Notes under the pieces: generated by a model
Seen by the model: only the letters and a program-made list of their open reading frames with translations
What the model was told of the DNA's origin: nothing
The model's database searches: none
In this document: positions 2,752 to 59,996 of the stretch, in pieces
Layout: every line of letters starts with the position of its first letter
Position numbering within the stretch: position 1 is the first letter of the stretch
NCBI GenBank assembly: GCA_964016885.1
Contig: OZ024750.1
Span: forward strand, 32,302,001 to 32,366,000
Direction of reading: 5' to 3'
DNA: 64,000 bases
Source of the DNA: Eledone cirrhosa
Taxonomy: Eukaryota
Position numbers and translations under genes: made by a program

Positions 2752-2930
2752 GGATTTGCACTATCGGTAGAGGGTCGGACGCCATGCTATTTAACAAAGA
2801 GTTACGGCCCTTTATGGTATGATTTCAAATCCCTCTGAAGTTAACTTTGCCTTTCATCCTTACGGAGTCGATAAAATAAAGTACCAGTAATACAATGGGA
2901 TAATTGGTGGCTGTGTGCCAGAAGTAGAAA
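2752..2930 (+). mobile_element. tRNA-derived SINE, family 1
   Basis: Head ..ATCGGTAGAGGGTCGGACGCCATG, B-box-like TTCAAATCC, conserved body CTTTGCCTTTCATCCTTACGG.GTCGATAAAATAAAGTACCAG. Confidence 0.8.
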
Positions 2931-2936
2931 TAAAAG

Positions 2937-3125
2937 GGCGGCGGATTGGCAGTATCGGTAGGGGGTCGGACGCCATCCTTTGCAGCAAAGAGTTACGGCC
3001 CTTTAAGGTATGAGTTCAAATCCCGCCGAAGTTAACTTTGCCTTTCATCCTTACGGGGTCGATAAAATAAAGTACCAGTAATACACTGGAATAATTTCTG
3101 GCCGTGTGCCAGAAGTAGAAACAAT
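2937..3125 (+). mobile_element. tRNA-derived SINE, family 1 (tandem with previous copy)
   Basis: A-box-like TGGCAGTATCGG, B-box GAGTTCAAATCC, same conserved body. Confidence 0.85.
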
Positions 3126-3311
3126 TATATATATATATATATATGATGCCTTTGAGACTCATAACAACTATGTACCCTAAATGTTCTAAATGACTAGGAT
3201 TCTAGTTACATGTTTTCGACATTCCTTATACTCCGATGAATCCAGATTTCCTTCTGGAATAAACAATTATCAGCTAATAAATGTTCTAAACTAAAATGTG
3301 ATCGTTTTAAC

Positions 3312-3361
<50 letters not shown>

Positions 3362-3486
3362 TATATATAAATATATATATATATATAAATATATATATAT
3401 TTATATATATATATAAATATATATATAAATATATATATATATAAATATATAATAAATAACAAAGAACGCCTATAGCATATGCATAT

Positions 3487-3544
3487 CTTTACTTGCTAAC
3501 ATTGTTTCATCCGCACTATAAGTGGGACTCATCAGAGCATAAAG
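3487..3544 (-). ncRNA. Type I hammerhead ribozyme (PLE)
   Basis: Reverse complement of the HHR at 7692-7749. Confidence 0.75.
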
Positions 3545-4178
3545 GTTAATTACATACCATACAAGCAATAACAAATCCAAGACATTGAAGAATGAAAAAT
3601 AATAGAAGATAAAGGATATTAAGGAAGTAAAAGTAAAAATAAGAATAAAAATAAAAATAAAAATAAAAATAAAAATAAAAATAAAAATAAAAATAAAAAT
3701 AAAAATAAAAATAAAAATAGAAATAAAAATAAAAATAAAAATAAAAATAAAATAATAAAATAAACAATGAAAAATAAGGGGTGCTATCAGTCACAGTTGG
3801 GCGGGGTGCTGTCAACATATAGTTACATACAAGCATACACATGGATAAGAGAACAGACAAGAGTAGATAAGATAGATAGGATTAGGTAAGAGTAGGTAAA
3901 AAATAGGTGAAAAACAGACTTATAATATATATAAGAAAATATAAAGAAATATATAACAAACTTACATATAAAATATAAAGTATAAAATATACAGATAATA
4001 GTGATACAGGGTAAGGAATGAAATAAAATAATATAAAATTAAAATTAAAATTATATAAAATAGAACATAATATAATATAATCATAAAATAAGATAAAATA
4101 AGGTAAACTAAAATAAAATAAAATAGACTAAAGTAAAATAATATAATATAAGATATAATTAAATGTAATTAAATAAAA

Positions 4179-4229
<51 letters not shown>

Positions 4230-5844
4230 AATTAAATAAATAAATAAAATTAAAATTAAAATTAAATTTAAATAAATGAATAAATAAATAAATAAGTAAA
4301 TAAATAAATAAATAAATAAATAAATGAAATTAAATAAGTAAATAAATAAAATAAAATTAATAAAATTAGATAAAATGAAATGAAATAAAATAAAATAAAA
4401 TAAAATGAAATAAAGTAAATTGAGATAAGATATATATTTTTTTTAGAATATATCTCTTGAATATATCAGGGGCCCACGAAGGCACTAAGTGTCACAGTCA
4501 TCTGTGTCACTTGACCATTTTTTAAAAATATATTTCTTGAAGATATCAGGGGCCCACGAAGGCTCTAAGTGTCACAGTCACCAGTATTACTTGACCATTG
4601 CAAGGCAATGGAGGCGTCCCAGGTTGGGCAGTCTCAAAAGTTCACTCGAAAGTCACGGGTGTGCATTCACACAGTTGAGCGGTGGGGTAATCACAAACCG
4701 GTTCACACCCGGGCAGGAGTCCAATGGTCAAACAGAGGTGCATCGAAGGAAGGTAGGAGAATTCACGTGCATTAGCAAGCGAGGTGCAGGCGGGTTAGCC
4801 AAAGCAAGCAGACACAGTTGGAGCGCATACAAAAGATATATAAAAAGACAAAAGATATATAAAAAATAGCTTCAAGAGCTATGAAGTCACCGCATTGGGA
4901 CATCACAAGATCGTACACATCAATATGTTCAGCACGTGTATGCACATATACACACCACATGCATATGCAGAGACGGTATACATATATATATATATATTTT
5001 TTTATATACAGACATATACAACCACCTACACCCAAACACATATAAATGTATACACAGACACACACGCACACACACACAGCGTAGGACACCCGGGTCAAAG
5101 CTAATATTAAACACCGAAATACCACATTAGGCAAGACCCACCACCACGGATAATACATTCAAAATAAATACATACGATGAGATGTAGTAAAATAAAGTTG
5201 AATTCCTACGGAGATAATCATGTCCGCACGTGCCATTGCCCGATTCAAGTGTACACAGACCGTTAGTAACTACGGAGGGCTATCGGGGCCAAAACGTTAC
5301 TTTCGGGATCATAACAACGACCGTCAATATATGGAAGGCCGATCGTGCTAGAAAGACTACAACCCCGGGCAAGAGCTCCCAGAAGTCAGCCTGTAGATCT
5401 TAAACCACAGAATATGAGGGCAACACGTACATGCGCCACGTATCTACTGCTTACGGCCGGATGGCACAGGTCCGCCCACAGTTACAGGCTAAATTTCTAT
5501 TAGTGCAGCCTATATCACAGTACACGCTCCACATAGATACATTACATCACAACTCATGCGCATACAGAGGTACAGATCCACAAGATATGCGTCAGGATAG
5601 ACCCACCAATGCACCAATGGTGGGTAGGCGAGCGTGGATGGGTTACATCCGCTGTGCCAAACAGGGGTGCTTATTAACATACACACCCACTCACCTGTAC
5701 ACCCCAGTATCCAGATCAATATCCTCCCGCAGACATACGTATACACTCACCGACTCATATACATAGAAGACCAACAATAGGAGACAGTTACACACAATCA
5801 GAGACAGTTACACAAGATAGCCCAACTGGAGAAATAAGGAAGTG

Positions 5845-6213
5845 CTAGCTAACAGGTTTAAAGTAGAAGAAAGAGCTTAATATTCGGTGGGGGCAAGAGG
5901 AAAATATTTCAGACTTTCTATTTAGTAGAGGGCATTTAGCAAATATAATAGAGTGGGATTCGGCAAGGCATAGGTTACATACTCTATTATGAGGAGTATA
6001 TGGATGGGATTTAGCAACCTGCCGCCAAGTAAGTGTGTAATGTGTTCGTGCATTTTTTAAATTATGGACGTACGCTGCCAAGGAGGTGGAGTTCCTCAGT
6101 TTATTATGTCTAAAAGTGCATTGGTGAGAGTTAAACCTGGTCTTAAAGGGGGTGGAGGTTGATCCTATATAGGTTTTAGTGGACGCCGTAGTTACCACAT
6201 CACACGCATAAAC
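5845..6213 (-). pseudogene. 5'-truncated C-terminal GIY-YIG endonuclease domain of a PLE ORF
   Basis: VYACDV...TYIGST...FKTRFNSH...STSLAAYVHNLK...W...PY...CNLCLAE...LLNRKSEIFSSCPHR*. GIY-YIG motif with conserved R/H/E/N and CxxC. The part of listed ORF 5845..6450 upstream of 6213 is an artefactual fusion. Confidence 0.85.
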
Positions 6214-7020
6214 TGAGGAACTCCGCCTCCTTGGCAGCGTACGTCCATAATTTAAAAAATTACGCTGTGTGTGTGTGCGTGTGTGTCTGTGTATACATTT
6301 ATATGTGTATGGGTGTAGGTGGTTGTATATGTCTGTATATAAAAAAAATATATATATATATATGTATACCGTCTCTGCATATGCATGTGGTGTGTATATG
6401 TGCATACACGTGCTGAACATATTGATGTGTACAATCTTGTGATGTCCCAATGCGGTGACTTCATGGCTCTTGAAGCTATTTTTTATATATCTTTTGTCTT
6501 TTTATATATCTTTTGTATGCGCTCCAACTGTGTCTGCTTGCTTTGGCTAACCCGCCTGCACCTCGCTTGCTAATGCACGTGAATTCTCCTACCTTCCTTC
6601 GATGCACCTCTGTTTGACCATTGGACTCCTGCCCGGGTGTGAACCGGTTTGTGATTACCCCACCGCTCAACTGTGTGAATGCACACCCGTGACTTTCGAG
6701 TGAACTTTTGAGACTGCCCAACCTGGGACGCCTCCATTGCCTTGCAATGGTCAAGTAATACTGGTGACTGTGACACTTAGAGCCTTCGTGGGCCCCTGAT
6801 ATCTTCAAGAAATATATTTTTAAAAAATGGTCAAGTGACACAGATAACTGTGACACTTAGTGCCTTCGTGGGCCCCTGATATATTCAAGAGATATATTCT
6901 AAAAAAATATATATCTTATCTCAATTTACTTTATTTCATTTTATTTTATTTTATTTTATTTCATTTCATTTTATCTAATTTTATTAATTTAATTTTATTT
7001 ATTTACTTATTTAATTTCAT

Positions 7021-7060
<40 letters not shown>

Positions 7061-7691
7061 ATTTAATTTTAATTTTAATTTTATTTATTTATTTAATTTT
7101 ATTTATTTATTTATTTATTTTATTTAATTACATTTAATTATATCTTATATTATATTATTTTACTTTAGTCTATTTTATTTTATTTTAGTTTACCTTATTT
7201 TATCTTATTTTATGATTATATTATATTATGTTCTATTTTATATAATTTTAATTTTATATTATTTTATTTCATTCCTTACCCTGTATCACTATTATCTGTA
7301 TATTTTATACTTTATATTTTATATGTAAGTTTGTTATATATTTCTTTATATTTTCTTATATATATTATAAGTCTGTTTTTCACCTATTTTTTACCTACTC
7401 TTACCTAATCCTATCTATCTTATCTACTCTTGTCTGTTCTCTTATCCATGTGTATGCTTGTATGTAACTATATGTTGACAGCACCCCGCCCAACTGTGAC
7501 TGGTAGCACCCCTTATTTTTCATTGTTTATTTTATTATTTTATTTTTATTTTTATTTTTATTTTTATTTTTATTTTTATTTTTATTTTTATTCTTATTTT
7601 TACTTTTACTTCCTTAATATCCTTTATCTTCTATTATTTTTCATTCTTCAATGTCTTGGATTTGTTATTGCTTGTATGGTATGTAATTAAC

Positions 7692-7749
7692 CTTTATGCT
7701 CTGATGAGTCCCACTTATAGTGCGGATGAAACAATGTTAGCAAGTAAAG
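7692..7749 (+). ncRNA. Type I hammerhead ribozyme (PLE)
   Basis: CTTTA-TGCT|CTGATGA|GTCC-CACT-tat-AGTG-c-GGAT|GAA-AC-aat-GT-T|AGCA-ag-TAAAG. Full core, helix I with bulge, minimal helix III, GUU site. Confidence 0.75.
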
Positions 7750-7892
7750 ATATGCATATGCTATAGGCGTTCTTTGTTATTTATTATATCACGGCTCTCT
7801 CCTCAGACATCGAGCTAACCTTATACTGCCTGCTGGATAAGTGGAGTGTTATACACCCCTGATCCTCTCCCTAGTATACTATATAAATATAT

Positions 7893-8042
<150 letters not shown>

Positions 8043-8187
8043 ATATATATTTATATAGTATACTAGGGAGAGGATCAGGGGTGTATAACACTCCACTTAT
8101 CCAGCAGGCAGTATAAGGTTAGCTCGATGTCTGAGGAGAGAGCCGTGATATAATAAATAACAAAGAACGCCTATAGCATATGCATAT

Positions 8188-8245
8188 CTTTACTTGCTAA
8201 CATTGTTTCATCCGCACTATAAGTGGGACTCATCAGAGCATAAAG
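8188..8245 (-). ncRNA. Type I hammerhead ribozyme (PLE)
   Basis: Third copy, identical to the other two. Confidence 0.75.
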
Positions 8246-8303
8246 GTTAATTACATACCATATTTATATATATATATATTTAAATATATATATATATATA
8301 AAT

Positions 8304-8529: not shown

Positions 8530-8600
8530 TTATTTCATTATATATATTTCGGGGATATCATATTAACAATATGCTATGCCTTCATCAGACAAAATACAAT
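8530..8600 (-). ncRNA. Degenerate HHR-like motif in a dispersed repeat (second copy 37240-37308, +)
   Basis: CTGA(T/A)GA, long helix II (ATGCCATAT/ATATGGTAT in the 37 kb copy), then GAAA. Cleavage-site register is imperfect. Confidence 0.4.
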
Positions 8601-9077: not shown

Positions 9078-9507
9078 ATATTGTTATACTTGGAGAGGGT
9101 CATATTTGTGTAATAATATTGCCAGAATTAATAACAGAACACACTCACTGTTTGGTTGCTTTTTGCTTCTGTGTCTCTTATATCGGTTAATTTAATTTAT
9201 TCGGTCCTCAATGTTGCCATTGACTGACCAACGGTCAAAAATACAATGCAACGGGAGGAAACATAATAGCACCACTGACGATGTTGCAGATCTGCAACGA
9301 AAGAACTTTGATAGACTATATATATGTGTTTGTGTCTATATTGTTTCTGTATTTTTGACCGTTGGTCAGTCAATGACAACATTGAGGACCGAATAAATTA
9401 AATTAACCGCTATAAAAGACACAGAAGCGAAAACCAACCAAACAGTGAGTGTGTTCTGTTATTAATTCTGGCAATATTATTACACACATATGACCCTCCC
9501 CAAGTAT

Positions 9508-9515
<8 letters not shown>
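9078..9515. repeat. Inverted repeat (arms 9078-9245 and 9348-9515) with HHR-like core in the spacer
   Basis: Arms are near reverse complements. Spacer has CTGACGA-t-GTTGCAG-at-CTGCAAC-GAAA (9275-9302). Right end abuts (TA)n. Confidence 0.75.
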
Positions 9516-13536: not shown

Positions 13537-13569
<33 letters not shown>

Positions 13570-13901
13570 AATGTAAGTATGTATGTATGTACACGTACAT
13601 ACATATATGTATATAGACGTACAGTAGTATGTATATATATACATACATGCACACACATATATATATGCACGTATCGGTTTACCGAACATTTATTATAATA
13701 CTCAGTTTGTTTATTTGTAAACAAGCAAACATCCCGGATTACGCCGTACAGTGTTTAGGCAACCACGTCACATTTTTTACGTGTACATACATACATACTT
13801 ACATTTAAGTAAGTGCCGTACTAAGAGTGAGAAATGAAATTTCGTTTCATTCTATTCCATTTATCGTTTTCGGTGCGCACAGCCGACTGAACTCACTCGA
13901 T

Positions 13902-13949
13902 ATGCAAATTAGGCTGCTCAGCCGTTAATATGCATAAGGAAAGTATATA
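13902..13949 (+). promoter_or_regulatory. Octamer + PSE-like + TATA block (putative snRNA-type promoter), family B
   Basis: ATGCAAATTAGGCTGCTCAGCCGTTAATATGCATAAGGAAAGTATATA; aligns with the family A block. Function is inferred. Confidence 0.5.
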
Positions 13950-13971
13950 CTTTCAGACGTCAACCATCTGG

Positions 13972-14030
13972 CAGGAATGTATACGATGCTGACGATAGTT
14001 AATAAGCTTGAAACTGGTACATCGTTCCTG
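13972..14030 (+). ncRNA. Type I hammerhead ribozyme (family B)
   Basis: CAGGAA-tgtat-ACGATG|CTGACGA|t-AGTT-aata-AGCT-t|GAA-AC-tg-GT-A|CATCGT-TCCTG; GUA site. Confidence 0.75.
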
Positions 14031-14304
14031 TGTCAGTGTTGAACAAAAAGGTGACGTGGTTGCCTAAACACTGTATGGCGTAATCCGGGCTGTTTGTTTG
14101 TTTACAAACAAACCTAGCATTATATTAAATGTTCGGTAAACCGATACGTGCATATATATATATATGTGTGCATGTATATATATATATATACATACTAGTG
14201 TACGTCTGTATACATATATATATGTATGTAGGTGTACATACATACATACTTACATTTAAGTAAGTGCCGTACTTAGAGTGAGAAATGAAATTTCGTTTCA
14301 TTCT

Positions 14305-14364
<60 letters not shown>

Positions 14365-14703: not shown

Positions 14704-14890
14704 GGGCGGTGGATTGGCAGTATCGGTAGAGGGTCAGACGCCATACTTTCCAGCATAGTTACGTCCCTTTACGATCTGAGTTCAAATCCCACCGAGGTTG
14801 ACTTTGCCTTTCATACTTACGGGGTCGATAAAATAAAGTACCAGTAATGCACTGGGTCATTGCTGGCCTTGTGCCTAAAGTAGAAACAAT
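14704..14890 (+). mobile_element. tRNA-derived SINE, family 1 (full length)
   Basis: A/B boxes and conserved body. Confidence 0.85.
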
Positions 14891-16365
14891 TATTGTTCTT
14901 CTAATTCCAGTCAACTCGTATCTAATAATATCCCTCGACAATAAGCGTTCATCATCTCCATAAATACCCCCATTATATGTAGGAATTCTTTGTATTAAAA
15001 ATCCTTGATATATATTTCTGCAAGATCACGCATTGAGCTCCGTCATAGGAAGACAAATGAAACGAGTTTATCTGAATATATATGTATCGTTGATGAAAAT
15101 GATGTATAATCAACAAGCACGACTGAATGTTTAAGTTCATTTCGTATTTCATCTGTGCTATCAGGGTGTTATCCCACCATGGGAAACATAAGCAAGTGAT
15201 TTATATCAAACCTCTAGGTTTCTCAATATGTTGTGAGTGTAAATTGTTGGATATATATAATTTTCGGTGGCCCTCTGAGCCGAGCTTTGTAAGTATTAAT
15301 GTAAAGAGTATTTTCCAACTGTGGAAAGTTCCGCCAATGTTTGAAACGCTGATTTGCTATGCTAAGAAGACACCATTGCCTGATAAGATCTAACAGTTTT
15401 AGCGACGATGAGGATTTTAGTTGCTTAATCAAATATTTGAGATGCACAAAAGAGAAATGAATGTATATTAAATTAAGATAGAACACAGACAACGCTACTC
15501 CATCATGAGTTTGTGTTCTATCTCACTACGTGACCCCTTCGTAAACTGACTTCTTGTGTAACCTCGAATTGGCCAATACCGTGTGAGTAACGTTAGAGAA
15601 TGATACCGAATGAACATATGTTATATATATTATACCGTTGTACGGTGTATGTGTATGTTTGTCGCAAGCCTAGAAACCGGCACCTTTAGAACGACAGTGT
15701 CTAATATTTCTTCCGAACCAGTTTTCATCCACTCCATCGTTATTCTCGCTATTAGAACTGCAGTGAAACTTTAGAAGCTTGCAATCAACGACATTATTAA
15801 CCATCAATTGTAATATATAATGAAATATATAAAGCATATATGATGAATTGGCATATTATGTCTCTGTAAAGACAAGCAACTAAGGTAAATATTTGAACGC
15901 TAAAGAGACTCTACTAAAAATAAAAGGAAACTACAATATGAAGTTATAATACATTTAGAGAGTGCTTTTGATGTTACAATCCCATTAGCTTCGCAACATT
16001 ATATCGCTTAAAAAATATTCCATTCACTAACCATTAGCTTAATCACCTTATAGACACAAACACGTATATTTTGTATCAAACGGGAAGCCTAATGATATTC
16101 TAGCGAAAAACCACTTCAGGAAATACGTAAGTAATACGTTTCTAACAAACTACATACTAGTAACTATCAAAGTAATAGTTGCTAAACAAAGTTTACATTT
16201 TCGAATGTTGACATGAAAGTTGAAAACTCTTTAATAATTATTTGGTTGGTCAAAGTTCCGCAACTCTTTTAAGAAGTTTAACCATGCACCTACAACTTGT
16301 TACAATACGTTCCCATTTCATCCCCATACATTAAATATGTGAACAATTACACATACATCAATCAT

Positions 16366-32378: not shown

Positions 32379-32834
32379 TTAAAATCTCATACTAAAAATG
32401 AATCAGCTACTTATGTACCTCTGCCTTACTGAGATTTTCTTTCTGTGTATTGTTTTATCTAATACTAAATATATATAGAAGCTCTTGACGAATGTGAAGT
32501 TAGGAAATAAATAGACAACCATTGTGGTTTTGTGTTACTGGTGTTGTTTCGCCTCATCTCCACCGTTGTCAAGAAGATCCACGGTTAAATTCATTCCATC
32601 TATGAGCATCTTATCGGTTTTCGAGATAGGATACCTAGAAATACATTTATCCATCATGCTTTTTTTGTTGTTTTTTGTTGTTTTTTTTTGTTGTGTTTTT
32701 TTTTTTATTAAACAGTAAGTTATAAGTTGGGAAAGATTTAGCCGCTATTTCTAGCAGACATAGTAATTACGCAGATGTTCTCTTCTTTGTTTTGGGCACA
32801 GATGGGTTTGCTGGAACGAACCATAAAACAAATA

Positions 32835-33021
32835 ATTGTTTCTACTTTTGGCACAAGGCCAGCAATTATCCCAGTGTATTACTGGTACTTTATTTTATCG
32901 ACCCCGTAAGGATGAAAGGCAAAGTTAACCTCGGCGGGATTTGAACTCAGACCGTAAAGGGACATAACTGTACTGCAAAGCATGGCGTCCGACCCTCTAA
33001 CGATACTGCCAATCCACCGCC
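32835..33021 (-). mobile_element. SINE family 1 (full length)
   Basis: Reverse complement of the 14704-14890 type. Confidence 0.85.
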
Positions 33022-35423: not shown

Positions 35424-35934
35424 TGAGTTTATAGTTTACACATATAAATACGAGATAGAGTAATTGTCTGATAGAAATGTTAATGTTAGAGGGAAAACCT
35501 TCTAAATGGATGCAGATTTGAATCCGTTTCACTTGTCAAGTGTGTGCAACCTTAAAACAATCTTCTCGGCAAAAAGAATTCCATTTATGCATCAAATTTA
35601 TTAAAGTGGAATCTTTTTATGGAAATATCAATGACAAAATCATAATTGTATCTTTCAGCATTATGTTTACCCAAGTGAAAAATATCTGATATATTTTCTA
35701 AATACCGTTGTTATACATACTACTGTACGTATGTATACATATATGTATGTACGTATACATACTTATATTTAAGTAACAGCCGTACTAAGAGTGAGAAATG
35801 AAATTTCGTTTCATTTTTTCCATTTATCGTTTTCGGTGCGCCCGGCCGATTAACTCATTCGATATGCAAATTAGGCTGGTCAGCCGTTAATATGCATGAG
35901 GAAAGTATATACTTTCAGACGTTCAATCATCTGG

Positions 35935-35991
35935 CAGGAAGGTATGCGTTGCTGACGATAGCTAATAAGCTTGAAAATAATACAGCGTTCC
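35935..35991 (+). ncRNA. Type I HHR (family B), helix III mutated
   Basis: GCGTTG|CTGACGA|t-AGCT-aata-AGCT-t|GAAA-ataa-T-A|CAGCGT. Confidence 0.55.
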
Positions 35992-36364
35992 TTTGTCAGT
36001 GTTGAACAAACGAGCAACGATGGTTGCTAGACACTGTACAGCTTAATACGGGATGTTTCTTTACAAACACACCGAGCATTATAATAAATGTTCGGTGAAT
36101 CCATACGTACATATATATATGTGTGCATGTATGTATACATATATACATCCTACTGTACGTCTGTATACACATATGTATGTACGTGTACATACTTATATTT
36201 AAGTAACAGCCGTACAAAGAGTGGGAAATGAAATTTCGTTTCATTTTTTCCGTTTATCGTTCTCGGTGCGCCCGGCCGATTAACTCACTCGATATGCAAA
36301 TTAGGCTGCTCAGCCGTTAATATGCATGCGGAAAGTATATACTTTCAGACGTTCAATCATCTGC

Positions 36365-36414
36365 CAGGAAGGTATGCGTTGCTGACGATAGCTAATAAGC
36401 TTGAAACTAGTACT
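36365..36414 (+). ncRNA. HHR (family B), 3' strand of helix I lost
   Basis: CTGACGA...GAA-ACTAGT-A followed by a deletion. Confidence 0.5.
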
Positions 36415-37490
36415 ACGGCTTAATACGGCATGTTTGTTTACAAACACACCGAGCATTATAATAAATGTTCGGTGAATCCATACGTAAATATATATATGTG
36501 TGCATGTATATATATATATACATACTATTGTACGTCTGTATACATATATGTATGTACGTATACATATTTATATTGTTGTTATAGTTGTTATTCTAATTCT
36601 TATTAAATATTTAGCAAAAACCAAACTTCTGGGTTCAATTCCACCCCAGATATATATCTTAGCTTCTGAATTATTTTTGAAGTTTTTTATCGATCACAAG
36701 TTCAATTTTTCAAGATTTTGCTACTAATGGTCATTTGATCCTCCACCACCCTCACGCACATGTGTACGCATGTATATATATATATATGAGTGCAGTTACC
36801 TCCGATTGGACCCGGGACTCTCTCTCTCTCTCACACACACGCTTAACTAGTGGTGCGGATCTTGTAAAATCGTACCGAGGAAACAATGTTCTTTGGTGTT
36901 ATAATTGCTAATACTATCTGTCGGTCGTAACTACAGGCAGAAGGAGCATCTATAACAGCACAGCCACGCGCTTTCACACTCAACCACGCACCCTCACACT
37001 CAGACATATATATATTTGTATATATATATATATATATATGCAAAAGTTTTATTTAAAATTGTTGGGTTACAACGAGTAAATATTTTATAACTGACATTTC
37101 TTCCTTTTCTCCGTCTTTCTTTCTAACTGTGCTTAACACTAAATATTTATAAACATTTCACTACCAAACCAACCTCTTAAATGGAAGTTGTTCAATATTT
37201 ATGGTACGTCAAATTTATTTATAAAACTGCTTATATATTGTATTTTATCTGAAGAAGGCATGCCATATTTTTAATATGGTATCCCTGAAATATGTATAAT
37301 GAAATAGATATGGTTTTATAAATATAGTTTCCATTTGTTTAATATCGTATATATAAATATATATATATATCCCAAATTAAATTAAGGGTGTGATGTCCGA
37401 GATACACTTTTACACACTTTTACAAATTATTCCCTGTGATTGTTTTATATGTTTATTTTAGATATATATATATGTCAATCAATTTCTAGT

Positions 37491-39704: not shown

Positions 39705-40700
39705 ACCGGTACTAATTCTGCAACTAATATTTTACTCGGTAACCTTGGTTGAGCGATCCTTCGATCAAAAGTACTGATTCTGCAACCGCTACTGTTGGAG
39801 TTAAGCTCATGTTAACCTTACTGCAGCGGTCTGCTGATCAAAGGTACTAATTCTGCAACTAATATGTTAGTTGGTAAACTTGGTTGAGCGATCCTTCGAT
39901 CAAAAGTACTGATTCTGCAACCGCTACTGTTGGAGTTAAGCTCATGTTAACCTTACTGCAGCGGTCTGCTGATCAAAGGTACTAAATCTGCAATCGCTAC
40001 TTTTGATGTTAACACTGGTTGAGCGGTCCTCTCATCAAAGGTACTTATTCTACAATCACTACTGTTGGTTTTAAACCCAGGTTAATCTTAGTGGACCGAT
40101 GTTCTGATCAAAGGTACTAATTCTGCAACCACTGCTGTTGGTTTTAGACCCTGGTTAACCTTATTGGAGCGATGCTCTGAACAAAAGTACTAAGTCTGCA
40201 ACCCCTAATGTTGGTGTTAAACCCAGCTTCACCCTAATGTGAGCGGATCTCTGAGCAAAGACACTAAATCTATAATCGCTACAGTTGGTGTTGAGCTCCG
40301 GTTCACCCTAGCTGAGCGGATCTCTGATCAAGGACACGGAACCTGGAATCGCTACTGATGGTATTACGCCCAGGTTGACAATAGTGGGGTGGTCAGCTAA
40401 TGAAATGTACTAATTCTACAGTCAGTGCAACGTCTCTTGTAACCCTAGTGGAGCTGACTTCTCATCAAATGTACTGATTCTACAATAACTGTTGTTGTTA
40501 TTAACTGTGTTTGAGCTGCCTTCCAATCCTAGTTACCAATTCTGCAATTGGTGCTGTTACAGTTCAGCCCAGGTTAACTCTGGCTGAGCAGAATTCTAAT
40601 CACAGGTTCTAATTTCGCAAACCCTGATCGAGCAGATCTCTCATCACAGGGATTAGATTTGCAACCGTTGCTACCGTTAAGCCAGAGTTAGCCCTGATGG
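39705..40700. repeat. Degenerate minisatellite of 62- and 73-bp monomers
   Basis: GTACT.ATTCTGCAA anchors at 39709, 39771, 39844, 39906, 39979, 40041, 40114, 40187 and onward. Confidence 0.8.
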
Positions 40701-47682: not shown

Positions 47683-48737
47683 GTTTCTTGGTGAGGAGGG
47701 TGGCTTTGGACATCCTGCAGGACTAAAAACACAACCTGTCAAAGGGCAAAGGGGCTCTTAAGAGTCAATAGCCATCCAAAATCACATGCATATATACATG
47801 CATACATACATGCATACATACATGCATATATACATGCATACATACATATATACATACATATATAGATACGTTCACATACACAAATTCGCCCACAAACACT
47901 GACACCCACACACTGGCACTCAAATACCGACCACTTTAAAGATTATACCAATCTATAGCACTCAAACACATACTATTACTAACACTAACACTAATATTAA
48001 TATTAATATTTATAAGTAAACATAAAATATTCAATGGATTCAAACACGAGTCATTATTTCTGAAAGTTTTCAGTTCCGTCTTTCTGAAATAAATAAATAT
48101 ATTGTTTACTTTCTTCTTAATATTTCCTTCTATTCTTTGAGATTCCTACTTAAGAGATTTTATGTTATTTCTTTTCATTTCTTTGAAAACTACTTCATAC
48201 TATCGAGAATTTTGAGAGAGTTTAGCATTTGTCCAGTTTATGAAAAACTGTCGTATACAATAATAAATTCAAATTGAAATTTACCTTTTTCATAGACACT
48301 AAGCTCTTCGAAGACAATAGATTAATTGAATCCATATATATTGTGATTCTCACATAAACTCAGCAAAAATATATTAGTTAAGCTTTCAAAGGAAACGACT
48401 CAAGTTTTCAACAACGCGCATCCTTTTCAATGGAAGAAGAGAACTATTTACTGAATGAAACAACAAGACCTCTGGTGAAAATTAGTTTCTAGTACATAAC
48501 ACTTGGAAATATAAATTACAACGAATCACTATCAACTCATACATACATGTATACAATCAATAACGTATTCTTAAATCAGTTTAATATAACAACAAAAAAA
48601 ACAATATACAAAACCTCGCTATTCGTTATCGAATTTGTGGTCGGAATTAGAGATATCCTACATATATGACAAACCCAAGTTTAACAATCGAACTTTCCTT
48701 TTCTCAATAATAAAATACTTAATTTCCTTTTTCATAT

Positions 48738-48922
48738 TTGTTTCTACTTTAGGGACAAGGCCAGCAATTACCCAGTTCATTACTGGTACTTTATTTTATC
48801 GACCCCGTAAGGATGAAAGGCAAAGTCAACCTCGGCGGGATTTGAACTCAGATCGTAAAGGGACGTAACTATGCTGGAAAGCATGGCGTCCGACCCTCTA
48901 CCGATACTGCCAATCCACCGCC
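48738..48922 (-). mobile_element. SINE family 1 (full length)
   Basis: Near-consensus copy. Confidence 0.85.
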
Positions 48923-50129: not shown

Positions 50130-50298
50130 TATCGGTAGAGAGTCTGACGCCATGCTTTGTAGCAAAGAGTTACGGCTCTTTATGGGCTGAGTTCAACTCC
50201 CGCCGAGGTTAACTTTTCCTTTCATCCTTACGGCGTCGATAAAATAAAGTACCAGTAATGGACTGGGTAATTGCTGGCCTTGTGCCAAAAGAAGAAAC
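50130..50298 (+). mobile_element. SINE family 1
   Basis: Near full length. Confidence 0.85.
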
Positions 50299-50417
50299 TA
50301 TTATATATAGATATATCGTATATGTCTTCATACACATCCCAATTAAGCAATTAAGAACTATGCTCTGTTACTGCTTCTGCTTATATATATATATATATAT
50401 ATATACATAATAATAAT

Positions 50418-50596
50418 AATTGTTTCTACTTTTGGCACAGGGCCAGCAATTATCCAGTACATTACTGGTACTTTATTTTATCGACCCCGTAAGGATGAAA
50501 GGCAAAGTCAACCTCTGCGGGATTTGAACTCAGATCGTAAAGAGACGTAGCTATGCTGGAAAGCATGGCGTCCGACCCTCTACCGATACTGCCAAT
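50418..50596 (-). mobile_element. SINE family 1
   Basis: Near full length, inverted relative to the previous copy. Confidence 0.85.
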
Positions 50597-52228
50597 AATA
50601 ATAATGGTAATAATAATTATGAAGACCAAACTTCATATATATATATATATATATATGAATTGGGAGGGTTTCATATAGCTTCATCACATTCAGCGATGGT
50701 TATTGTTTAATGATTGGCTGGTATTTGCAATATGGCGTGGGATTGTGAAGTATTTGTCCGTTTGAAGCTATGGTTACGTTATGAAGAAGGTGGAGCGGGG
50801 AACAGTACAGTTATAGAATCACTTTATATTTTTCTAAATTTAGTTATTTCTGCATTTATTTCTTAAAATTGATTTCTTAATAATTGGAATATATATTTGT
50901 GGCTCTTATGCGAGCATATAGAAATTGATTTATTGAATAACACTACGAATTCTAGCAGTGAAAACTAATTTTGAGTTTGGTAATTTCTAAAGTTTGTTAT
51001 TAATTATTTCATACTAATTGGAGGTTTTATATATGAAATAGTGATTGTATATATAATTGACTTTATTGAAATATTGCCAGACTCTTATTATTGCTAATTG
51101 ATAATAAGAAGTCATTCAGTTATATTCCTTCTTTCCCGATCGCTATGTTAGGTGAATTATTTTTTTAATTTTTAGTAATCTATTTCTACCTAATTTTGGT
51201 TTCGTGGCAATTAAGAAATTACGGATATCCTCAATTTCGTGTGCTTGGATATGTTTGGAAAAGGTCACGAATGTTTACGATTATTTATTTGACACTTGCC
51301 CTTTAATATGCAAATTTATAAACGATATTTGCATGACCCTTTGATCCAGAAAGTTCTAGAGAAAAGCGTGAATATTATAAAGTCCTTGACGTTAATGATT
51401 TTGTAGCAAACGTGACAATCTGTATACTAAATGATTATATTTAAAGTTGCTGGGGATGGGGGGTCTAAGAAATCTCTATGAGTAATATATATGTTGTGAA
51501 GTAACGTGGCCTAGTGGTAAGGCTGTTGGACGTACAATCTTAATGCCATGGATTCCATTCCTGGAGCACCTTGTGTGTTGGGGTCTTAACCTAAACACTT
51601 CATTTCTCGTTGCTTCAGTATAATCAGGTGACCCGCCACGGACACCAGAATAAGCATCGGCCTGATGAGCCTCCGGTATATATATATGTACTCTCATAGA
51701 CAGACACACACACACACATATACATATATACATGTGTGTGTGAGAAAGGGAGACGCATTCAATCGGGGGTAACCACAGTAAGTAAGGTACTCAATACATT
51801 AGTATAGTATATATAACAAATGTAATATAGATATAGAAATGGCTTCTACACGACTAAAACTGTTTCATTCGAAGAAAATCATCCAGATATTATACACCGC
51901 CCCCGCCCCAACTCTCAAGAGCGTGAACCTAATATACCTTTATTTGTCTGCCTCTCTGTTTTGTTCCCGTCCAAAGTTGCACTATATATATAATTATATA
52001 TATATACAATTAAGTTAAAAATGTACATCCACATATGTATACTGAAATACTAGTATGCATATGAATACACACACGTATACATATGTAGATGTACCGAGTT
52101 TTTCACTGGTCACTTTACTGTGAGTGTCCAGCTATTCTGTATGTAAACACACAGACAAACCGGTTTTTAGAGTCATACTGGTTTTTGAGGAAACACCTTT
52201 CCTCTATTCTCCAGAAAGCCAGACAAGG

Positions 52229-52273
52229 AATATTGAACTAGTTTCGTTGTTGTTACAACTCATCAGCAATATT
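52229..52273 (-). ncRNA. Type I HHR (family A)
   Basis: Reverse complement of 54163-54207. Confidence 0.85.
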
Positions 52274-52694
52274 TACCTATCTTCCGGCCTTTCTAGAGAA
52301 TCGTAAAAGCACATATCGTTATATGCTTTTTCTATGAAAATTAGTAGTGGGCAGACTAATTTGCATAGAGCGTGAGTACGTACCGGTTCAACGGAGACGA
52401 TAAAAACAAATAACGAAACGAAATTAAATTTCGTTTCGTTTGTAACTCACTTTTGTATGACTGACGCTTAAACAATTAAGTTAAAAATGTACATCCACAT
52501 ATGTATACTGAAATACTAGTATGCATATGAATACACACACGTATACATATGTAGATGTACCGAGTTTTTCACTGGTCACTTTACTGTGAGTGTCCAGCTA
52601 TTCTGTATGTAAACACACAGGCAAACCGGTTTTTAGAGTCATACTGGTTTTTGAGGAAACACCTTTCCTCTATTCTCCAGAAAGCCAGACAAGG

Positions 52695-52739
52695 AATATT
52701 GAACTAGTTTCGTTGTTGTTACAACTCATCAGCAATATT
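52695..52739 (-). ncRNA. Type I HHR (family A)
   Basis: Identical copy, +466 bp. Confidence 0.85.
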
Positions 52740-53160
52740 TACCTATCTTCCGGCCTTTCTAGAGAATCGTAAAAGCACATATCGTTATATGCTTTTTCTA
52801 TGAAAATTAGTAGTGGGCAGACTAATTTGCATAGAGCGTGAGTACGTACCGGTTCAACGGAGACGATAAAAACAAATAACGAAACGAAATTAAATTTCGT
52901 TTCGTTTGTAACTCACTTTTGTATGACTGACGCTTAAGCAATTAAGTTAAAAATGTACATCCACATATGTATACTGAAATACTAGTATGCATATGAATAC
53001 ACACACGTATACATATGTAGATGTACCGAGTTTTTCACTGGTCACTTTACTGTGAGTGTCCAGCTATTCTGTATGTAAACACACAGACAAACCGGTTTTT
53101 AGAGTCATACTGGTTTTTGAGGAAACACCTTTCCTCTATTCTCCAGAAAGCCAGACAAGG

Positions 53161-53205
53161 AATATTGAACTAGTTTCGTTGTTGTTACAACTCATCAGCA
53201 ATATT
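53161..53205 (-). ncRNA. Type I HHR (family A)
   Basis: Identical copy. Confidence 0.85.
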
Positions 53206-53626
53206 TACCTATCTTCCGGCCTTTCTAGAGAATCGTAAAAGCACATATCGTTATATGCTTTTTCTATGAAAATTAGTAGTGGGCAGACTAATTTGCATAG
53301 AGCGTGAGTACGTACCGGTTCAACGGAGACGATAAAAACAAATAACGAAACGAAATTAAATTTCGTTTCGTTTGTAACTCACTTTTGTATGACTGACGCT
53401 TAAACAATTAAGTTAAAAATGTACATCCACATATGTATACTGAAATACTAGTATGCATATGAATACACACACGTATACATATGTAGATGTACCGAGTTTT
53501 TCACTGGTCACTTTACTGTGAGTGTCCAGCTATTCTGTATGTAAACACACAGACAAACCGGTTTTTAGAGTCATACTGGTTTTTGAGGAAACACCTTTCC
53601 TCTATACTCCAGAAAGCCAGACAAGG

Positions 53627-53671
53627 AATATTGAACTAGTTTCGTTGTTGTTACAACTCATCAGCAATATT
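53627..53671 (-). ncRNA. Type I HHR (family A)
   Basis: Identical copy. Confidence 0.85.
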
Positions 53672-54069
53672 TACCTATCTTCCGGCCTTTCTAGAGAATC
53701 GTAAAAGCACATATCGTTATATGCTTTTTCTATGAACGGAGACGATAAAAACATTCTGGAGAATAGAGGAAAGGTGTTTCCTCAAAAACCAGTATGACTC
53801 TAAAAACCGGTTTGTCTGTGTGTTTACATACAGAATAGCTGGACACTCACAGTAAAGTGACCAGTGAAAAACTCGGTACATCTACATATGTATACGTGTG
53901 TGTATTCATATGCATACTAGTATTTCAGTATACATATGTGGATGTACATTTTTAACTTAATTGTTTAAGCGTCAGTCATACAAAAGTGAGTTACAAACGA
54001 AACGAAATTTAATTTCGTTTCGTTATTTGTTTTTATCGTCTCCGTTGAACCGGTACGTACTCACGCTCT

Positions 54070-54117
54070 ATGCAAATTAGTCTGCCCACTACTAATTTTC
54101 ATAGAAAAAGCATATAA
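54070..54117 (+). promoter_or_regulatory. Octamer + PSE-like + TATA-like block, family A (one per complete unit)
   Basis: ATGCAAATTAGTCTGCCCACTACTAATTTTCATAGAAAAAGCATATAA. Function is inferred. Confidence 0.5.
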
Positions 54118-54162
54118 CGATATGTGCTTTTACGATTCTCTAGAAAGGCCGGAAGATAGGTA

Positions 54163-54207
54163 AATATTGCTGATGAGTTGTAACAACAACGAAACTAGTT
54201 CAATATT
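54163..54207 (+). ncRNA. Type I HHR (family A)
   Basis: AATATTG|CTGATGA|GTTGT-aaca-ACAAC|GAA-AC-ta-GT-T|CAATATT. Perfect core, 7-bp helix I, 5-bp helix II, palindromic ACTAGT helix III, GUU site. Confidence 0.88.
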
Positions 54208-54628
54208 CCTTGTCTGGCTTTCTGGAGAATAGAGGAAAGGTGTTTCCTCAAAAACCAGTATGACTCTAAAAACCGGTTTGTCTGTGTGTTTACATACAGA
54301 ATAGCTGGACACTCACAGTAAAGTGACCAGTGAAAAACTCGGTACATCTACATATGTATACGTGTGTGTATTCATATGCATACTAGTATTTCAGTATACA
54401 TATGTGGATGTACATTTTTAACTTAATTGTTTAAGCGTCAGTCATACAAAAGTGAGTTACAAACGAAACGAAATTTAATTTCGTTTCGTTATTTGTTTTT
54501 ATCGTCTCCGTTGAACCGGTACGTACTCACGCTCTATGCAAATTAGTCTGCCCACTACTAATTTTCATAGAAAAAGCATATAACGATATGTGCTTTTACG
54601 ATTCTCTAGAAAGGCCGGAAGATAGGTA

Positions 54629-54673
54629 AATATTGCTGATGAGTTGTAACAACAACGAAACTAGTTCAATATT
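54629..54673 (+). ncRNA. Type I HHR (family A)
   Basis: Identical copy. Confidence 0.88.
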
Positions 54674-54961
54674 CCTTGTCTGGCTTTCTGGAGAATAGAG
54701 GAAAGGTGTTTCCTCAAAAACCAGTATGACTCTAAAAACCGGTTTGTCTGTGTGTTTACATACAGAATAGCTGGACACTCACAGTAAAGTGACCAGTGAA
54801 AAACTCGGTACATCTACATATGTATACGTGTGTGTATTCATATGCATACTAGTATTTCAGTATACATATGTGGATGTACATTTTTAACTTAATTGTTTAA
54901 GCGTCAGTCATACAAAAGTGAGTTACAAACGAAACGAAATTTAATTTCGTTTCGTTATTTG

Positions 54962-54992
<31 letters not shown>

Positions 54993-55115
54993 GAATATAG
55001 ACATAGAATATTCGAAAATATTCTGTATGTTTATAATAAACATTTTGAAGACCTAATCGCTATAGAATAGAATACGTCACGTATTACAATTAGATTCTCG
55101 ATAAAAGCAAGGGAA

Positions 55116-55158
55116 GTAATCTACGCGTTTCATTCTTGTTAGAAATCATCAGGACTAC
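55116..55158 (-). ncRNA. Type I HHR (family C)
   Basis: Reverse complement of 55516-55558. Confidence 0.8.
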
Positions 55159-55515
55159 ATATCCAGTGCTTTTATCGAGAATGACACAGCTAGAGACTTA
55201 TAGAATACTTAGCTGTGTACAGGAACTGGTTTGAAAGAGCGGTTGCCGGTCCGGCAGAAATTAGAAATTGGAATAAATGCTCTGAAATAGCGATATATAT
55301 GTGAATATAGACATAGAATATTCGAAAATATTCTGTATGTTTATAATAAACATTTTGAAGACCTAATCGCTATAGAATAGAATACGTCACGTATTACAAT
55401 TAGATTCTCGATAAAAGCAAGGGAAGTAATCTCGCTCTTTCAAACCAGTTCCTGTACACAGCTAAGTATTCTATAAGTCTCTAGCTGTGTCATTCTCGAT
55501 AAAAGCACTGGATAT

Positions 55516-55558
55516 GTAGTCCTGATGATTTCTAACAAGAATGAAACGCGTAGATTAC
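55516..55558 (+). ncRNA. Type I HHR (family C)
   Basis: GTAGTC|CTGATGA|t-TTCT-aaca-AGAA-t|GAA-AC-gc-GT-A|GATTAC, closed by a 16-bp stem ATTCTCGATAAAAGCA/TGCTTTTATCGAGAAT. Confidence 0.8.
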
Positions 55559-55826
55559 TTCCCTTGCTTTTATCGAGAATCTAATTGTAATACGTGACGT
55601 ATTCTATTCTATAGCGATTAGGTCTTCAAAATGTTTATTATAAACATACAGAATATTTTCGAATATTCTATGTCTATATTCACATATATATCGCTATTTC
55701 AGAGCATTTATTCCAATTTCTAATTTCTGCCGGACCGGCAACCGCTCTTTCAAACCAGTTCCTGTACACAGCTAAGTATTCTATAAGTCTCTAGCTGTGT
55801 CATTCTCGATAAAAAGCACTGGATAT

Positions 55827-55869
55827 GTAGTCCTGATGATTTCTAACAAGAATGAAACGCGTAGATTAC
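55827..55869 (+). ncRNA. Type I HHR (family C)
   Basis: Identical copy, +311 bp. Confidence 0.8.
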
Positions 55870-56023
55870 TTCCCTTGCTTTTATCGAGAATCTAATTGTA
55901 ATACGTGACGTATTCTATTCTATAGCGATTAGGTCTTCAAAATGTTTATTATAAACATACAGAATATTTTCGAATATTCTATGTCTATATTCACATATAT
56001 ATCGCTATTTCAGAGCATTTATC

Positions 56024-56079
<56 letters not shown>

Positions 56080-56906
56080 CAGATTAGAGCAAACATCACG
56101 GACGCTCTATCTCAAAATTATTTTTGAAAAGCATTAGAAATGCGCAACCGGTAAAACTTAAAAGCAAAACTGAATACTAAACAATACTATTACTAATTTT
56201 CACTTATTCCTAATTAAACTATTTTTCACTGTGAACAATTTGTCAGCATTTTCTTTTCCGTTTACCAATATATCATAACTTGTGTGTTACACCTCTATTC
56301 TTTTAAATATATATATATATATATATATTTTATAAACCTGACGGCCGTATGTATGTAACAAACCTTTCGCCAAACGGCTGGACCAAACAGCACCAACATT
56401 TGCACCTTAGATGTAACTTTTTCTAAGTAAGAAAGTGAAGCTATTTTTGTCTACTGAAGTTTGTTAAAAGATTAAAGACATTATTTAAATATTCACTTCT
56501 TTAAAATTTCAAATGTCAACAATTCCGGTTATACAACATTCCTCTCTCTCTTTCTTAGCCTGTCTTTTTAGATAGATACAGCTATAACGTTGCACCCTTA
56601 CAATATGTCTCTGTATGTCTGCTTGTCTGCATTAGGCCGATAAGATCAGTAACCTCCGCAGTAGTGAAAGAGTGAAGAATAACATGGTCGGCTGTACAAA
56701 AAGGGTTTTATTTACAATATTAACAATTGTTTCATTGATCAGATGAGTCTAAAGGCAGCTGATTACTCGAAATTGCGTCCTCGACCTTAAATACAGTGTA
56801 TGTCTCTGATCAAATCATCGGAATACTCTAACTTGATTACCTAAAACGATAACTTATTATCCCATATATATATATATATACTCACACACACACATACTCC
56901 CCCCCC

Positions 56907-56949
<43 letters not shown>

Positions 56950-57036
56950 CAAAGAGGGTGTGGTAAGATACCAGGTTGTCCATAATGCACCAGAGTACTC
57001 GATACATGGAGTAGTAGATTGGGTAATATAAAAAAA

Positions 57037-57130
57037 TTCAAGACCCGACGGCTGAGGTCCGATCGTTTCGACAGCTAGATTCGGATCTAGCTGTCGAAAC
57101 GGCCGGAGCTTAGCCGTCGGGGTCCTGAAT
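57037..57130. repeat. GC-rich fold-back made of two inverted HHR 3' halves
   Basis: CGTTTCGACAGCTAGAT-tcgg-ATCTAGCTGTCGAAACG. The right arm reads GAA-ACGGC-loop-GCCGT-C. Confidence 0.7.
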
Positions 57131-58132
57131 CTTTTCATATATATATATATATATATTTACCTACTCCTACCGAGGTTAGACATGTTTTTCTTTGCTCTCC
57201 CGAATTCACCGTCAACAAAAGCCTCTGACTTTTCTCTCTCCCTCCCCATTACTTACATACATACATGTGCTTCTCATGTTCCCCTCTTTTTCGATATGCT
57301 CTCAGCGTTTTCTTTTCCTTTTTTTTCCCTTCTGTCTACCCCCCCCCCCCCCCCCATAACTGGAGTTAGACATATTCTCTTTAATGCATTGAAATATACC
57401 TGATCTCCAGCAGACAGCTGAAGAAGGAATTGTCCCCCGCTTGTTCTTTGCTTTTATTTTAAAAAATATATATATATATATACCCTTTTCCTCTTAAGAA
57501 CAGTCTATGCGGTAATATTTTCTGGTTTCCACTGTTTTTCTATTCTCCCTTTAACCAAAGCGTTAATACGTTCAAGCACTTTCTGTTTGTTATTCAAACC
57601 GCCAAGAGCATATATAGTTATTCCCTAGGTTCATTAGGAAAGTAGATGACATTTAGATTACACTGGTGAAAATCACTTACGCCTGCTGAGCGTTGGCTAT
57701 ACAATATATATTGAAATGTTCACTCATATCGTCTTACTTTAGGTATTACAAATGCGTTTCTTCTAATATAAAATATTGCCACTATCCTGTACTATACAAT
57801 ATTGATAAGAATGCTTTCGAATATTTTGTTTTATTTTAGCTGTTTAGCTTTCGTTTTGTTTATTTATCAATTGATTTTCTATTATGCTGGAATACAATAT
57901 TATTCGATTCCTCCTACGCGGATTTGGAAATTATGTTTCAAAATAAAATATGGTTTTCCTAAAAGATATTTTCCTTTTTCTAATTTATATTTAGTGAATC
58001 ATACTCTAGTCGCCTTTAGGGCAATGTTCGTGATTTTTAATATCGAACCATTGTAACTGATTCCGCTTAACTTTCATACATTTCTAGAATGTTCTTTCTG
58101 GTTTTATTTTGCTGATAGAAAAAGGAACAACA

Positions 58133-58470
<338 letters not shown>

Positions 58471-58822
58471 ATAGTATATTTCTTATTTGATACTTCGTGT
58501 CCGGCTGAAATGTATGTTGTTGCCTTTAAGCGATCTCTTATATGCATACATACATACATGGTGGTGGCTGCCAACTCGTTTTCGAGTACGGCCACTACTT
58601 TATATCCATGTAGGAGAACCCCTACCGATGCGCTGAACGAGTGTGACTTTTTAGTCCAGCCAGCGACTTGAAAACTCTGGTACAAACACTACACTTGTGA
58701 CAATTATTGACACATAGTGCCAGGCCCATGGTACCATGTGATGACAAGTGCAGAGAGATCTCCAGATATAAAGCAATGCCTGTGCCGTGAAGCTTTTATA
58801 GTGAGCAAAGGCACTGCACAAA

Positions 58823-59996
58823 GTCAGTCCCCTCTTGGTTCTGACATCTAGTAGGATGTAGAACACCATCTTCATAGAGCGAAGCTGGGCATTCTTCTGT
58901 TTTGGTTGAGATAGTCAGTCCCCTCTTGGTTCTGACATCTAGTAGGATGTAGAACACCATCTTCATAGAGCGAAGCTGGGCATTCTTCTGTTTTGGTTGA
59001 GATAGTCAGTCCCCTCTTGGTTCTGACATCTAGTAGGATGTAGAACACCATCTTCATAGAACGAAGTTGGGCATTCTTCTGTTTTGGTTGAGATAGTCAG
59101 TCCCCTCTTGGTTCTGACATCTAGTAGGATGTAGAACACCATCTTCATAGAACGAAGCTGGGCATTCTTCTGTTTTGGTTGAGATAGTCAGTCCCCCTCT
59201 TGGTTCTGACATCTAGTAGGATGTAGAACACGATCTTCATAGAACGAAGCTGGGCATTCTTCTGTTTTGGTTGAGATAGTCACTCCCCCTCTTGGTTCTG
59301 ACATCTAGTAGGATGTAGAACACCATCTTCATAGAACGAAGCTGGGCATTCTTCTGTTTTGGTTGAGATAGTCACTCCCCCTCTTGGTTCTGACATCTAG
59401 TAGGATGTAGAACACCATCTTCATAGAACGAAGTTGGGCATTCTTCTGTTTTGGTTGAGATAGTCAGTCCCCTCTTGGTTCTGACATCTAGTAGGATGTA
59501 GAACACCATCTTCATAGAACGAAGCTGGGCATTCTTCTGTTTTGGTTGAGATAGTCAGTCCCCCTCTTGGTTCTGACATCTAGTAGGATGTAGAATACCA
59601 TCTTCATAGAACGAAGCTGGGCATTCTTCTGTTTTGGTTGAGATAGTCAGTCCCCCTCTTGGTTCTGACATCTAGTAGGATGTAGAATACCATGTTCATA
59701 GAACGAAGCTGGGTATTCTTCTGCTTTGGTTGAGATAGTCAGTCCCCCTCTTGGTTCTGACATCTAGTAGGATGTAGAACACCATGTTCATAGAACGAAG
59801 CTGGGCATTCTTCTGTTTTGGTGGAGATAGTCAGTCTCCCTCTTGGTTCTGATATCTAGTAGGATGAAGAACACCGTCTCCATAGAACGAAGCTGGGCAT
59901 TCTTCTGTTTTGGTTGAGATAGTCAGTCCCCTCTTTGTTCTGACATCTAGTAGGATGTAGAACACCGTCATCATAGAACGAAGCTGGGCATTCTTC
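58823..59996. repeat. 91/92-bp minisatellite, 13 cores
   Basis: GTCA(G/C)TCCCC starts at 58823, 58914, 59005, 59096, 59187, 59279, 59371, 59463, 59554, 59646, 59738, 59830, 59922. Confidence 0.95.

Follow-up and report, generated by a model that had tools for sequence, protein, structure and literature searches.

We show herein that positions 52006-54968 of a 64,000-nucleotide stretch of Eledone cirrhosa DNA (hereafter, the window) hold a non-coding 466-bp repeat in a head-to-head array that is very young; the repeat bears a hammerhead motif, and the array lies in a (TA)n tract. The array is very probably a true recent insertion. Judged by its sequence features, it falls under the working definition of an animal non-LTR retrozyme; the class is known and such a member is to be expected in it. 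The array behaves like a non-autonomous element mobilised by Penelope-like elements (PLEs). As to how it arose, we lean towards an insertion in which a borrowed PLE reverse transcriptase/endonuclease would have copied one linear multi-unit RNA from two internal start sites.

The unit is present in more than six near-identical copies, arranged in two back-to-back arms of 1,748 and 1,215 bp. Tandem Repeats Finder delimited a left array at 52006-53736 (466 bp x 3.7, 99%) and a right array at 53754-54968 (466 bp x 2.6, 100%), and the left and right arms are 100% complementary over 1,215 nt, which confirms an earlier description of two opposed arms; unit counts per arm are those of the assembly. 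Unit position 1 is defined as the first base 3' of the predicted ribozyme cut. On this numbering, the left arm (52006..53736, RNA sense on the minus strand) has its outer 3' end at unit 229-230 and its inner end at 364, while the right arm (53754..54968, plus strand) has its inner end at unit 20 and its outer 3' end at 302. Between them lies a junction piece of 17 nt (53737..53753, minus strand) that corresponds to unit 294-310, or to 294-312 if a 2-nt microhomology at 53735-53736 is counted. The RNA-sense 3' ends of both arms point outward into (TA)n, and their 5' ends meet in the centre.

Comparing each arm base by base with a single unit turned the "about 3 substitutions" of the earlier note into exactly three, at 52621, 52938 and 53606; all are in the left arm, each is private to one unit, and the right arm has none. 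The same note had described a 3-kb palindrome. The inverted repeat is there, but the mirror symmetry is not: the longest perfect fold-back about any axis in 53300-54200 is 14 nt, and the array is an asymmetric inverted repeat with no exact mirror. No stop-to-stop frame of at least 100 aa occurs within 52006-54968, the GC content of the array is about 0.35, and no Pol III A or B box pattern was found.

Each of the six complete hammerheads is of type I. Four lie on the minus strand, at 52213..52284, 52679..52750, 53145..53216 and 53611..53682 (predicted cuts after 52236, 52702, 53168 and 53634, respectively), and two on the plus strand, at 54152..54223 and 54618..54689 (predicted cuts after 54200 and 54666). 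They share the same sequence across the predicted cut site, and all six cut sites are seamless. The core is intact, with a stem I of 7 bp plus a long extension and a stem II of 5 bp, and by sequence the unit conforms to the type I core definition (CUGANGA / GAAA / UH, three helices). These motifs had been called six identical perfect hammerheads; identical they are, but "perfect" goes too far, given the cut triplet GUU and an Rfam HH9 match (37.7 bits, E 4.8e-7) below the gathering score of 52. At the gathering threshold, Rfam returned no match in the whole window, and the hammerheads surfaced only in E-value mode, in which matches to microRNAs were dismissed as hairpin noise. A hammerhead descriptor gave 10 hits in the window versus 1 in 30 dinucleotide shuffles, and overlooked the motifs of three neighbouring families (B, F and G, described below). 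Helix III is, as previously read, the palindrome ACTAGT (A-CUAG-U), which can form one pair by itself and six once a second copy joins it. In a published model, a palindromic helix III lets such motifs cleave as dimers, and PLE-type motifs are described there as having low activity (PMC4209133); only one of nine predicted dimers from Xenopus is reported to have cleaved (10.64898/2026.07.22.740005).

The repeat, here termed family A, was also found in independent sequencing runs. Four of the 23 listed runs were compared with 53615-54100, a segment that holds one full unit plus the junction; runs X1-X3 represent one sample and X21 another, and runs from organisms B-Q, with shares near 0.2, were left out of the evidence. 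Family A records comprised 1,113 contigs in X1, 1,156 in X2 and 24 in X5, together with 3,305 reads in X21, figures that reflect depth and not copy number. A depth step after unit 302 and a higher depth over unit 34-302 were likewise left out as copy counts. Between 44 and 46% of the records in X1 and X2 were less than 99% alike, and the family is far more varied than the array. The three private substitutions of the array were absent from the 40 listed of 84 variant rows, an absence that does not identify its source. No RNA run appeared among the sequencing-run matches listed for 51000-56500.

Some of this variation touches the ribozyme. A GUC variant of the cut site is present, and at the stem II pair formed by unit 444 and 455 both partners vary in the pair-keeping direction (one pair only, from unphased frequencies), at frequencies of 38% and 24% in X1, 35% and 25% in X2, and similar values in X21. 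When 21 of the 40 listed variants were set against the predicted pairing, 6 were unpaired, 9 kept a pair alone, 2 kept a pair together and 4 broke one, a tally that is weak as covariation evidence because transitions often preserve G-U pairs.

The outer ends of the array proved to be properties of the family. The left arm adjoins a (TA)n target tract at 51983..52005 and the right arm one at 54969..54991, the latter common to the neighbouring family B array; with (TA)n on both flanks, a target-site duplication is unreadable, and the outer 3' end of the right arm (unit 302) shares TAT with the TA tract. The stretch between the two 3' ends, unit 231-302, forms a one-sided tail of 72 nt at 54897..54968 (plus strand) with a predicted hairpin inside. 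Among the 19 rows listed, with 128 more beyond the listing, unit 302 ends into (TA)n in at least 12 contigs of X1 and at least 6 of X2, and unit 233 does so in at least 4 contigs of each. The loose ends of the contigs match the array's own two outer ends within 3 nt, and the two recurring 3' ends are 69-72 nt apart. A random internal priming site as the source of the right arm's end was dropped, since unit 302 is a family-wide end.

This arrangement has precedents in PLEs, whose insertions are described as having an adjacent inverted 5'-truncated copy, a one-sided tail and a bias for (TA)n (PMC8557442; PMC3846280). For a purified PLE protein, nicking and extension of both DNA strands are reported, with starts at two internal positions in the RNA, one at each boundary of the tail, and with uncut RNA as the main substrate (PMC11167929). 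Two-sided reverse transcription of family A is supported, because both 3' ends abut (TA)n, both match family-wide ends, and a PLE protein is described as acting in this way on both strands. The earlier note had proposed rolling-circle reverse transcription from both ends of a break; priming at both ends fits these observations, but the circle is only one of two live options. That reading also overlooked two things: PLEs have this layout as their standard footprint, and it is seen again elsewhere in the window. For these reasons the layout is less surprising than it had seemed.

The two-armed layout recurs across unrelated families and ages in the window. Family B, a 310-bp unit with a GUA hammerhead and a palindromic helix III, occupies the same TA tract as the family A array and has the same head-to-head layout, with a tail of about 26-35 nt. 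A 65%-identical relative of family A at 13568-14308 (F) has an inverted arm and a tail of about 50 nt, and its arms, which are only 88.5% alike, mark it as old and diverged; a direct dimer of F lies at 35712-36573 (G). Element C, at 3447-7880, carries a hammerhead, a one-sided tail and inverted arms of 1.5 kb that agree at 1,522 of 1,528 aligned bases; one of its frames is GIY-YIG-like (Atlas score 0.97 to a GIY-YIG cluster), and Pfam returned nothing significant on three element C frames. No autonomous partner that shares sequence with the family A unit was found in the window, element C included.

These neighbours bear on the view that the array arose at the DNA level, with a short copy expanded by slippage or unequal exchange and later inverted by fold-back repair. 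Tandem expansion of a solo terminal repeat has been proposed (10.64898/2026.07.22.740005), and the microhomology at a 53-nt skip near the centre of the array would suit repair. Such an origin is nonetheless highly improbable: the flanking DNA is without duplication, both arms stop at family-wide ends in (TA)n, the centre lacks mirror symmetry, and unrelated families share the layout.

The centre of the array consists of two distinct breaks. At 53736/53737, a 53-nt segment with ATGCAAAT is skipped, with 2 nt of microhomology, and 17 nt to the right of the skip the arms meet at 53753/53754 without microhomology. The loss of an octamer segment at a microhomology had thus been read correctly from the outset, but it had been placed at the arm-to-arm junction, where it is not. 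A start of the right arm about 19 nt past the cleavage site was borne out, as the first 19 nt past the predicted cut are absent and the arm opens at +20. The junction piece overlaps the 3' end phase of the right arm by 9 nt. A clean hairpin skip as the cause of the 53-nt deletion was rejected on the ground that one breakpoint falls inside a predicted stem. The octamer-like ATGCAAAT occurs once per full unit (unit 336-343; 54070..54077 on the plus strand), and also in relatives at 13902, 35864 and 36294. Newt satellite 2 has an snRNA-type octamer promoter. A promoter role for the octamer of family A was set aside: only its presence speaks for it, family B has none, and one of its bases is variable among family A copies.

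The central junction of this locus was bridged by none of the best 24 of 2,349 contig pieces; it is unconfirmed by reads, and what speaks for it is the assembly together with indirect evidence. Read depth was discarded as a check, as the bin 53734-53750 is explained by its first three bases (X21), and in X1 and X2 single-copy depth over the junction piece is not resolvable, so that it speaks neither for nor against the junction. An assembly or library artefact, namely a fold-back chimera or misjoined repeat copies, would account for the missing bridge. Consistent with it are the 67-76% of 254 sampled words of 51000-56500 contained in the best runs (X1-X3), the plentiful inverted repeats of the window, and the trouble that tandem and inverted PLE structures are reported to cause in assemblies (PMC8557442). 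A fold-back, however, would mirror exactly and include the flanks, whereas the arms end here at different, independently seen family ends; the old, diverged F has the same layout; and independent contigs contain other head-to-head joints. Five such joints, in other phases, were found among the matches listed for X1 and X2, with sides of only 20-29 nt: joint 439/264 in both runs and, each in a single run, joints 416/62, 396/233, about 362/43 and 357/59. An artefact is accordingly very unlikely.

It is highly likely, taken jointly, that family A is a tandem hammerhead family, that PLE nicks primed both cDNAs and that the cDNAs were joined by blunt end-joining. In the sequence of events that we favour, a PLE nick on each DNA strand would prime a cDNA, one at unit 229-233 and the other at 302; from what is known of PLE biochemistry, these two priming sites would place both 3' ends outward and leave one arm with a tail. 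The junction phases suggest that the template may have been one linear multimer, its 5' end made by a ribozyme cut and its internal ribozymes uncut. The first cDNA would extend over 3.7 units, skip 53 nt at the 2-nt microhomology and stop at the seat of the second primer, and the second would extend over 2.6 units and end within 19 nt of the 5' end of the RNA. The two cDNA ends would then be joined bluntly by end-joining.

This scheme was compared with uniform stops in a phase test, which asks how far one inner end lies from the cut and how far the other lies from the start of the opposite arm. The distances (cut / opposite start) are 19/9 nt for A, 1/60 for B and 25/30 for F, with single p values of 0.037, 0.039 and 0.15, the last of which falls short of significance. 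For a test with n = 3 that was framed after A was known, the held-out B and F combine to p = 0.036, and all three to p = 0.010, or 0.036 if the A inner end is put at 364. Element C, whose inner ends are far from its ribozyme, departs from the pattern and was left out as a non-tandem element. One linear multimer, cut by the ribozyme, thus accounts for the junction phases somewhat better than would a circle on which stops are random. There are counterpoints. In family B the inner end sits one base upstream of the cut; among the five contig joints, two also place an inner end upstream of it, by 28 and 71 nt. On a circle, the same phase bias could result if synthesis stalled at the long stem next to the cut. 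Opposite-strand joints within unit 20-366 are predicted by a linear template, and there were none among the matches listed, possibly through a limit of the tool. Finally, arrays would become shorter with every round of a purely linear route, so a multimer-building step is still needed.

The main competitor retains the two-sided PLE insertion but replaces the template by a circular monomer RNA copied repeatedly, with a separate circle for each arm as the most plausible form. At sites that are 20-50% polymorphic in family A, the units of the array do not differ, as expected from one monomer, although uniform units could also come from a uniform source array. All six cut sites being seamless suits a circle, and it disfavours end-to-end template jumping between cut monomers; R2-type template jumps leave scars at the joins. 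The unit is further predicted to fold very stably as a circle (-158.4 kcal/mol, versus -93.9 +/- 5.0 for 60 shuffles), and multimers must be made somewhere. Retrozyme circles are described as abundant in coral, mussel and axolotl and have been proposed as the template (PMC7229834), their abundance being supported by two further reports (PMC7761336; PMC4209133). On the other hand, a single shared circle requires that one enzyme overtake the other (1,801 versus 1,215 positions copied, 394 nt apart), and two circles do not predict the observed phase pattern. On balance, a circular template appears rather unlikely, and, given two-sided PLE insertion and blunt joining, a linear one is likely. Whether retrozyme arrays in general arise by twin priming, with a PLE enzyme dimer acting at two fixed sites on one linear ribozyme-ended multimer, is a broader proposal that we put forward tentatively.

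The case for PLE mobilisation of retrozymes has so far been based on co-occurrence and pLTR similarity. The origin of PLE inverted structures and the movement of retrozymes via circles are stated to be open questions (PMC8557442; 10.64898/2026.07.22.740005), and self-priming on an antisense template has also been offered for the former (PMC3846280). The family A array is a retrozyme that itself bears the insertion footprint: its 3' ends are paired and fixed, it has a tail and TA targets, and its arms are joined head-to-head. In a young, high-copy family, periodic units record the start and stop of each cDNA, so the mechanism becomes testable, and with many young copies in the genome, junction statistics could decide between linear and circular templates. 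Twin priming, if true, would explain both the head-to-head layout and the tail of PLE insertions, would give the hammerhead a role beyond circle-making in setting the template's 5' end, and would challenge the rolling-circle model. The array is thus an ordinary element but an unusually clean record, and a test bed for retrozyme and PLE mechanisms.

Among known systems, animal non-LTR retrozymes (PMC7229834; 10.64898/2026.07.22.740005) are described as non-coding, low-GC tandem units with one type I hammerhead each, as is family A, and they share with it a high copy number and a highly self-paired predicted fold. Their working definition asks for two or more consecutive tandem units, each with a complete type I hammerhead (10.64898/2026.07.22.740005), and the array has four and two consecutive hammerhead units in its arms, is non-coding and low in GC with no LTR layout, and belongs to a dispersed multi-copy family (contigs of X1 and X2, reads of X21). 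Its 466 bp are within the 51-972 bp range given in that source, and exceed the circles of 170-400 nt described in PMC7229834. Unlike published animal retrozymes, family A is arranged head-to-head, its two 3' ends are fixed and it bears a tail. The word "inverted" has no occurrence in the main text of PMC7229834 and one, in a reference, in 10.64898/2026.07.22.740005, and neither head-to-head retrozyme arrays nor PLE twin priming turned up in searches of an open-access library. Newt satellite 2 and axolotl HHR_Amex1 have the same one-base-pair helix III with a palindromic tetraloop cap, and their ribozymes are reported to cleave better as dimers (PMC7229834; PMC4209133); the cut triplet GUU sets family A apart from both.

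With endonuclease-bearing PLEs (PMC8557442; PMC3846280; PMC11167929), as described there, the array shares an inverted 5'-truncated copy at the 5' end, a head-to-head junction, a one-sided tail, a (TA)n target and a hammerhead in the repeat, and the inverted truncated copy, the tail and the target together are the marks of a PLE-mobilised element. It is not an autonomous PLE, for it has no ORF for an RT or a GIY-YIG endonuclease; the unit lacks either frame, both arms are multi-unit, and the tail is 72 nt versus the published 30-40. Compared with L1, family A lacks poly(A), and it has fixed internal priming sites, a template that would be a repeat multimer, and an unreadable TSD. Twin or dual priming is nevertheless a known route to inverted, joined pieces for L1 (PMC2837659), and in both cases two primers on opposite strands would yield two pieces in inverted orientation whose 5' ends are joined.

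One of the three substitutions in the array of family A, the retrozyme-like 466-bp hammerhead repeat, lies at 52938. This is exactly unit position 230, two units inward from the outer end of the left arm, which has that same phase. This coincidence may be due to chance.

The neighboring array of family B (54992-56028), built of a 310-bp unit in head-to-head arms of 1.4 and 1.9 units, shares a TA tract with that of family A. Its hammerhead has a GUA cut triplet and a palindromic helix III, and the predicted cut lies at most 1 nt from one inner end, that is, the end of an arm at the central junction. Two older relatives of family A, with ~65% identity to it, likewise have GUA at the cut site: F (13568-14308) is head to head and carries a tail, and G (35712-36573) is a dimer in direct orientation, with a deletion after the second ribozyme.

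Another inverted element (9078-9515) terminates in (AT)n and contains a decayed hammerhead-like core at 9275; judged by eye, the inner end of its inverted arm lies ~40 nt past the putative cut. Two mutually related hammerhead-like cores of one further family, at 8588(-) and 37249(+), adjoin TA tracts, and CUGAUGA cores at 27904(-), 28416(-) and 51662(+) are cut short just downstream by TA-rich sequence.

Among other repeats, a dispersed SINE-like sequence of ~190 bp is present in more than 10 copies in the window (2750-3130, 14705-14893, 32830-33021, 48734-48922, 50130-50600 and others), some of them paired, in tandem or inverted. There are also a 92-bp minisatellite (58822-59996; 12.8 copies, 96%), a composite 62/73-bp array (39708-40417), and a short, imperfect, GC-rich palindrome (57026-57140) flanked by TA tracts.

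Element C (3447-7880) is a young Penelope-like fragment with inverted arms of 1.5 kb that are 99.6% alike, a hammerhead at 7701(+)/3535(-), a tail of ~90 nt on one side only, and a GIY-YIG-like frame at 5848-6240(-). The 3' end of C also occurs as a solo copy of 207 bp at 8056-8262(-).
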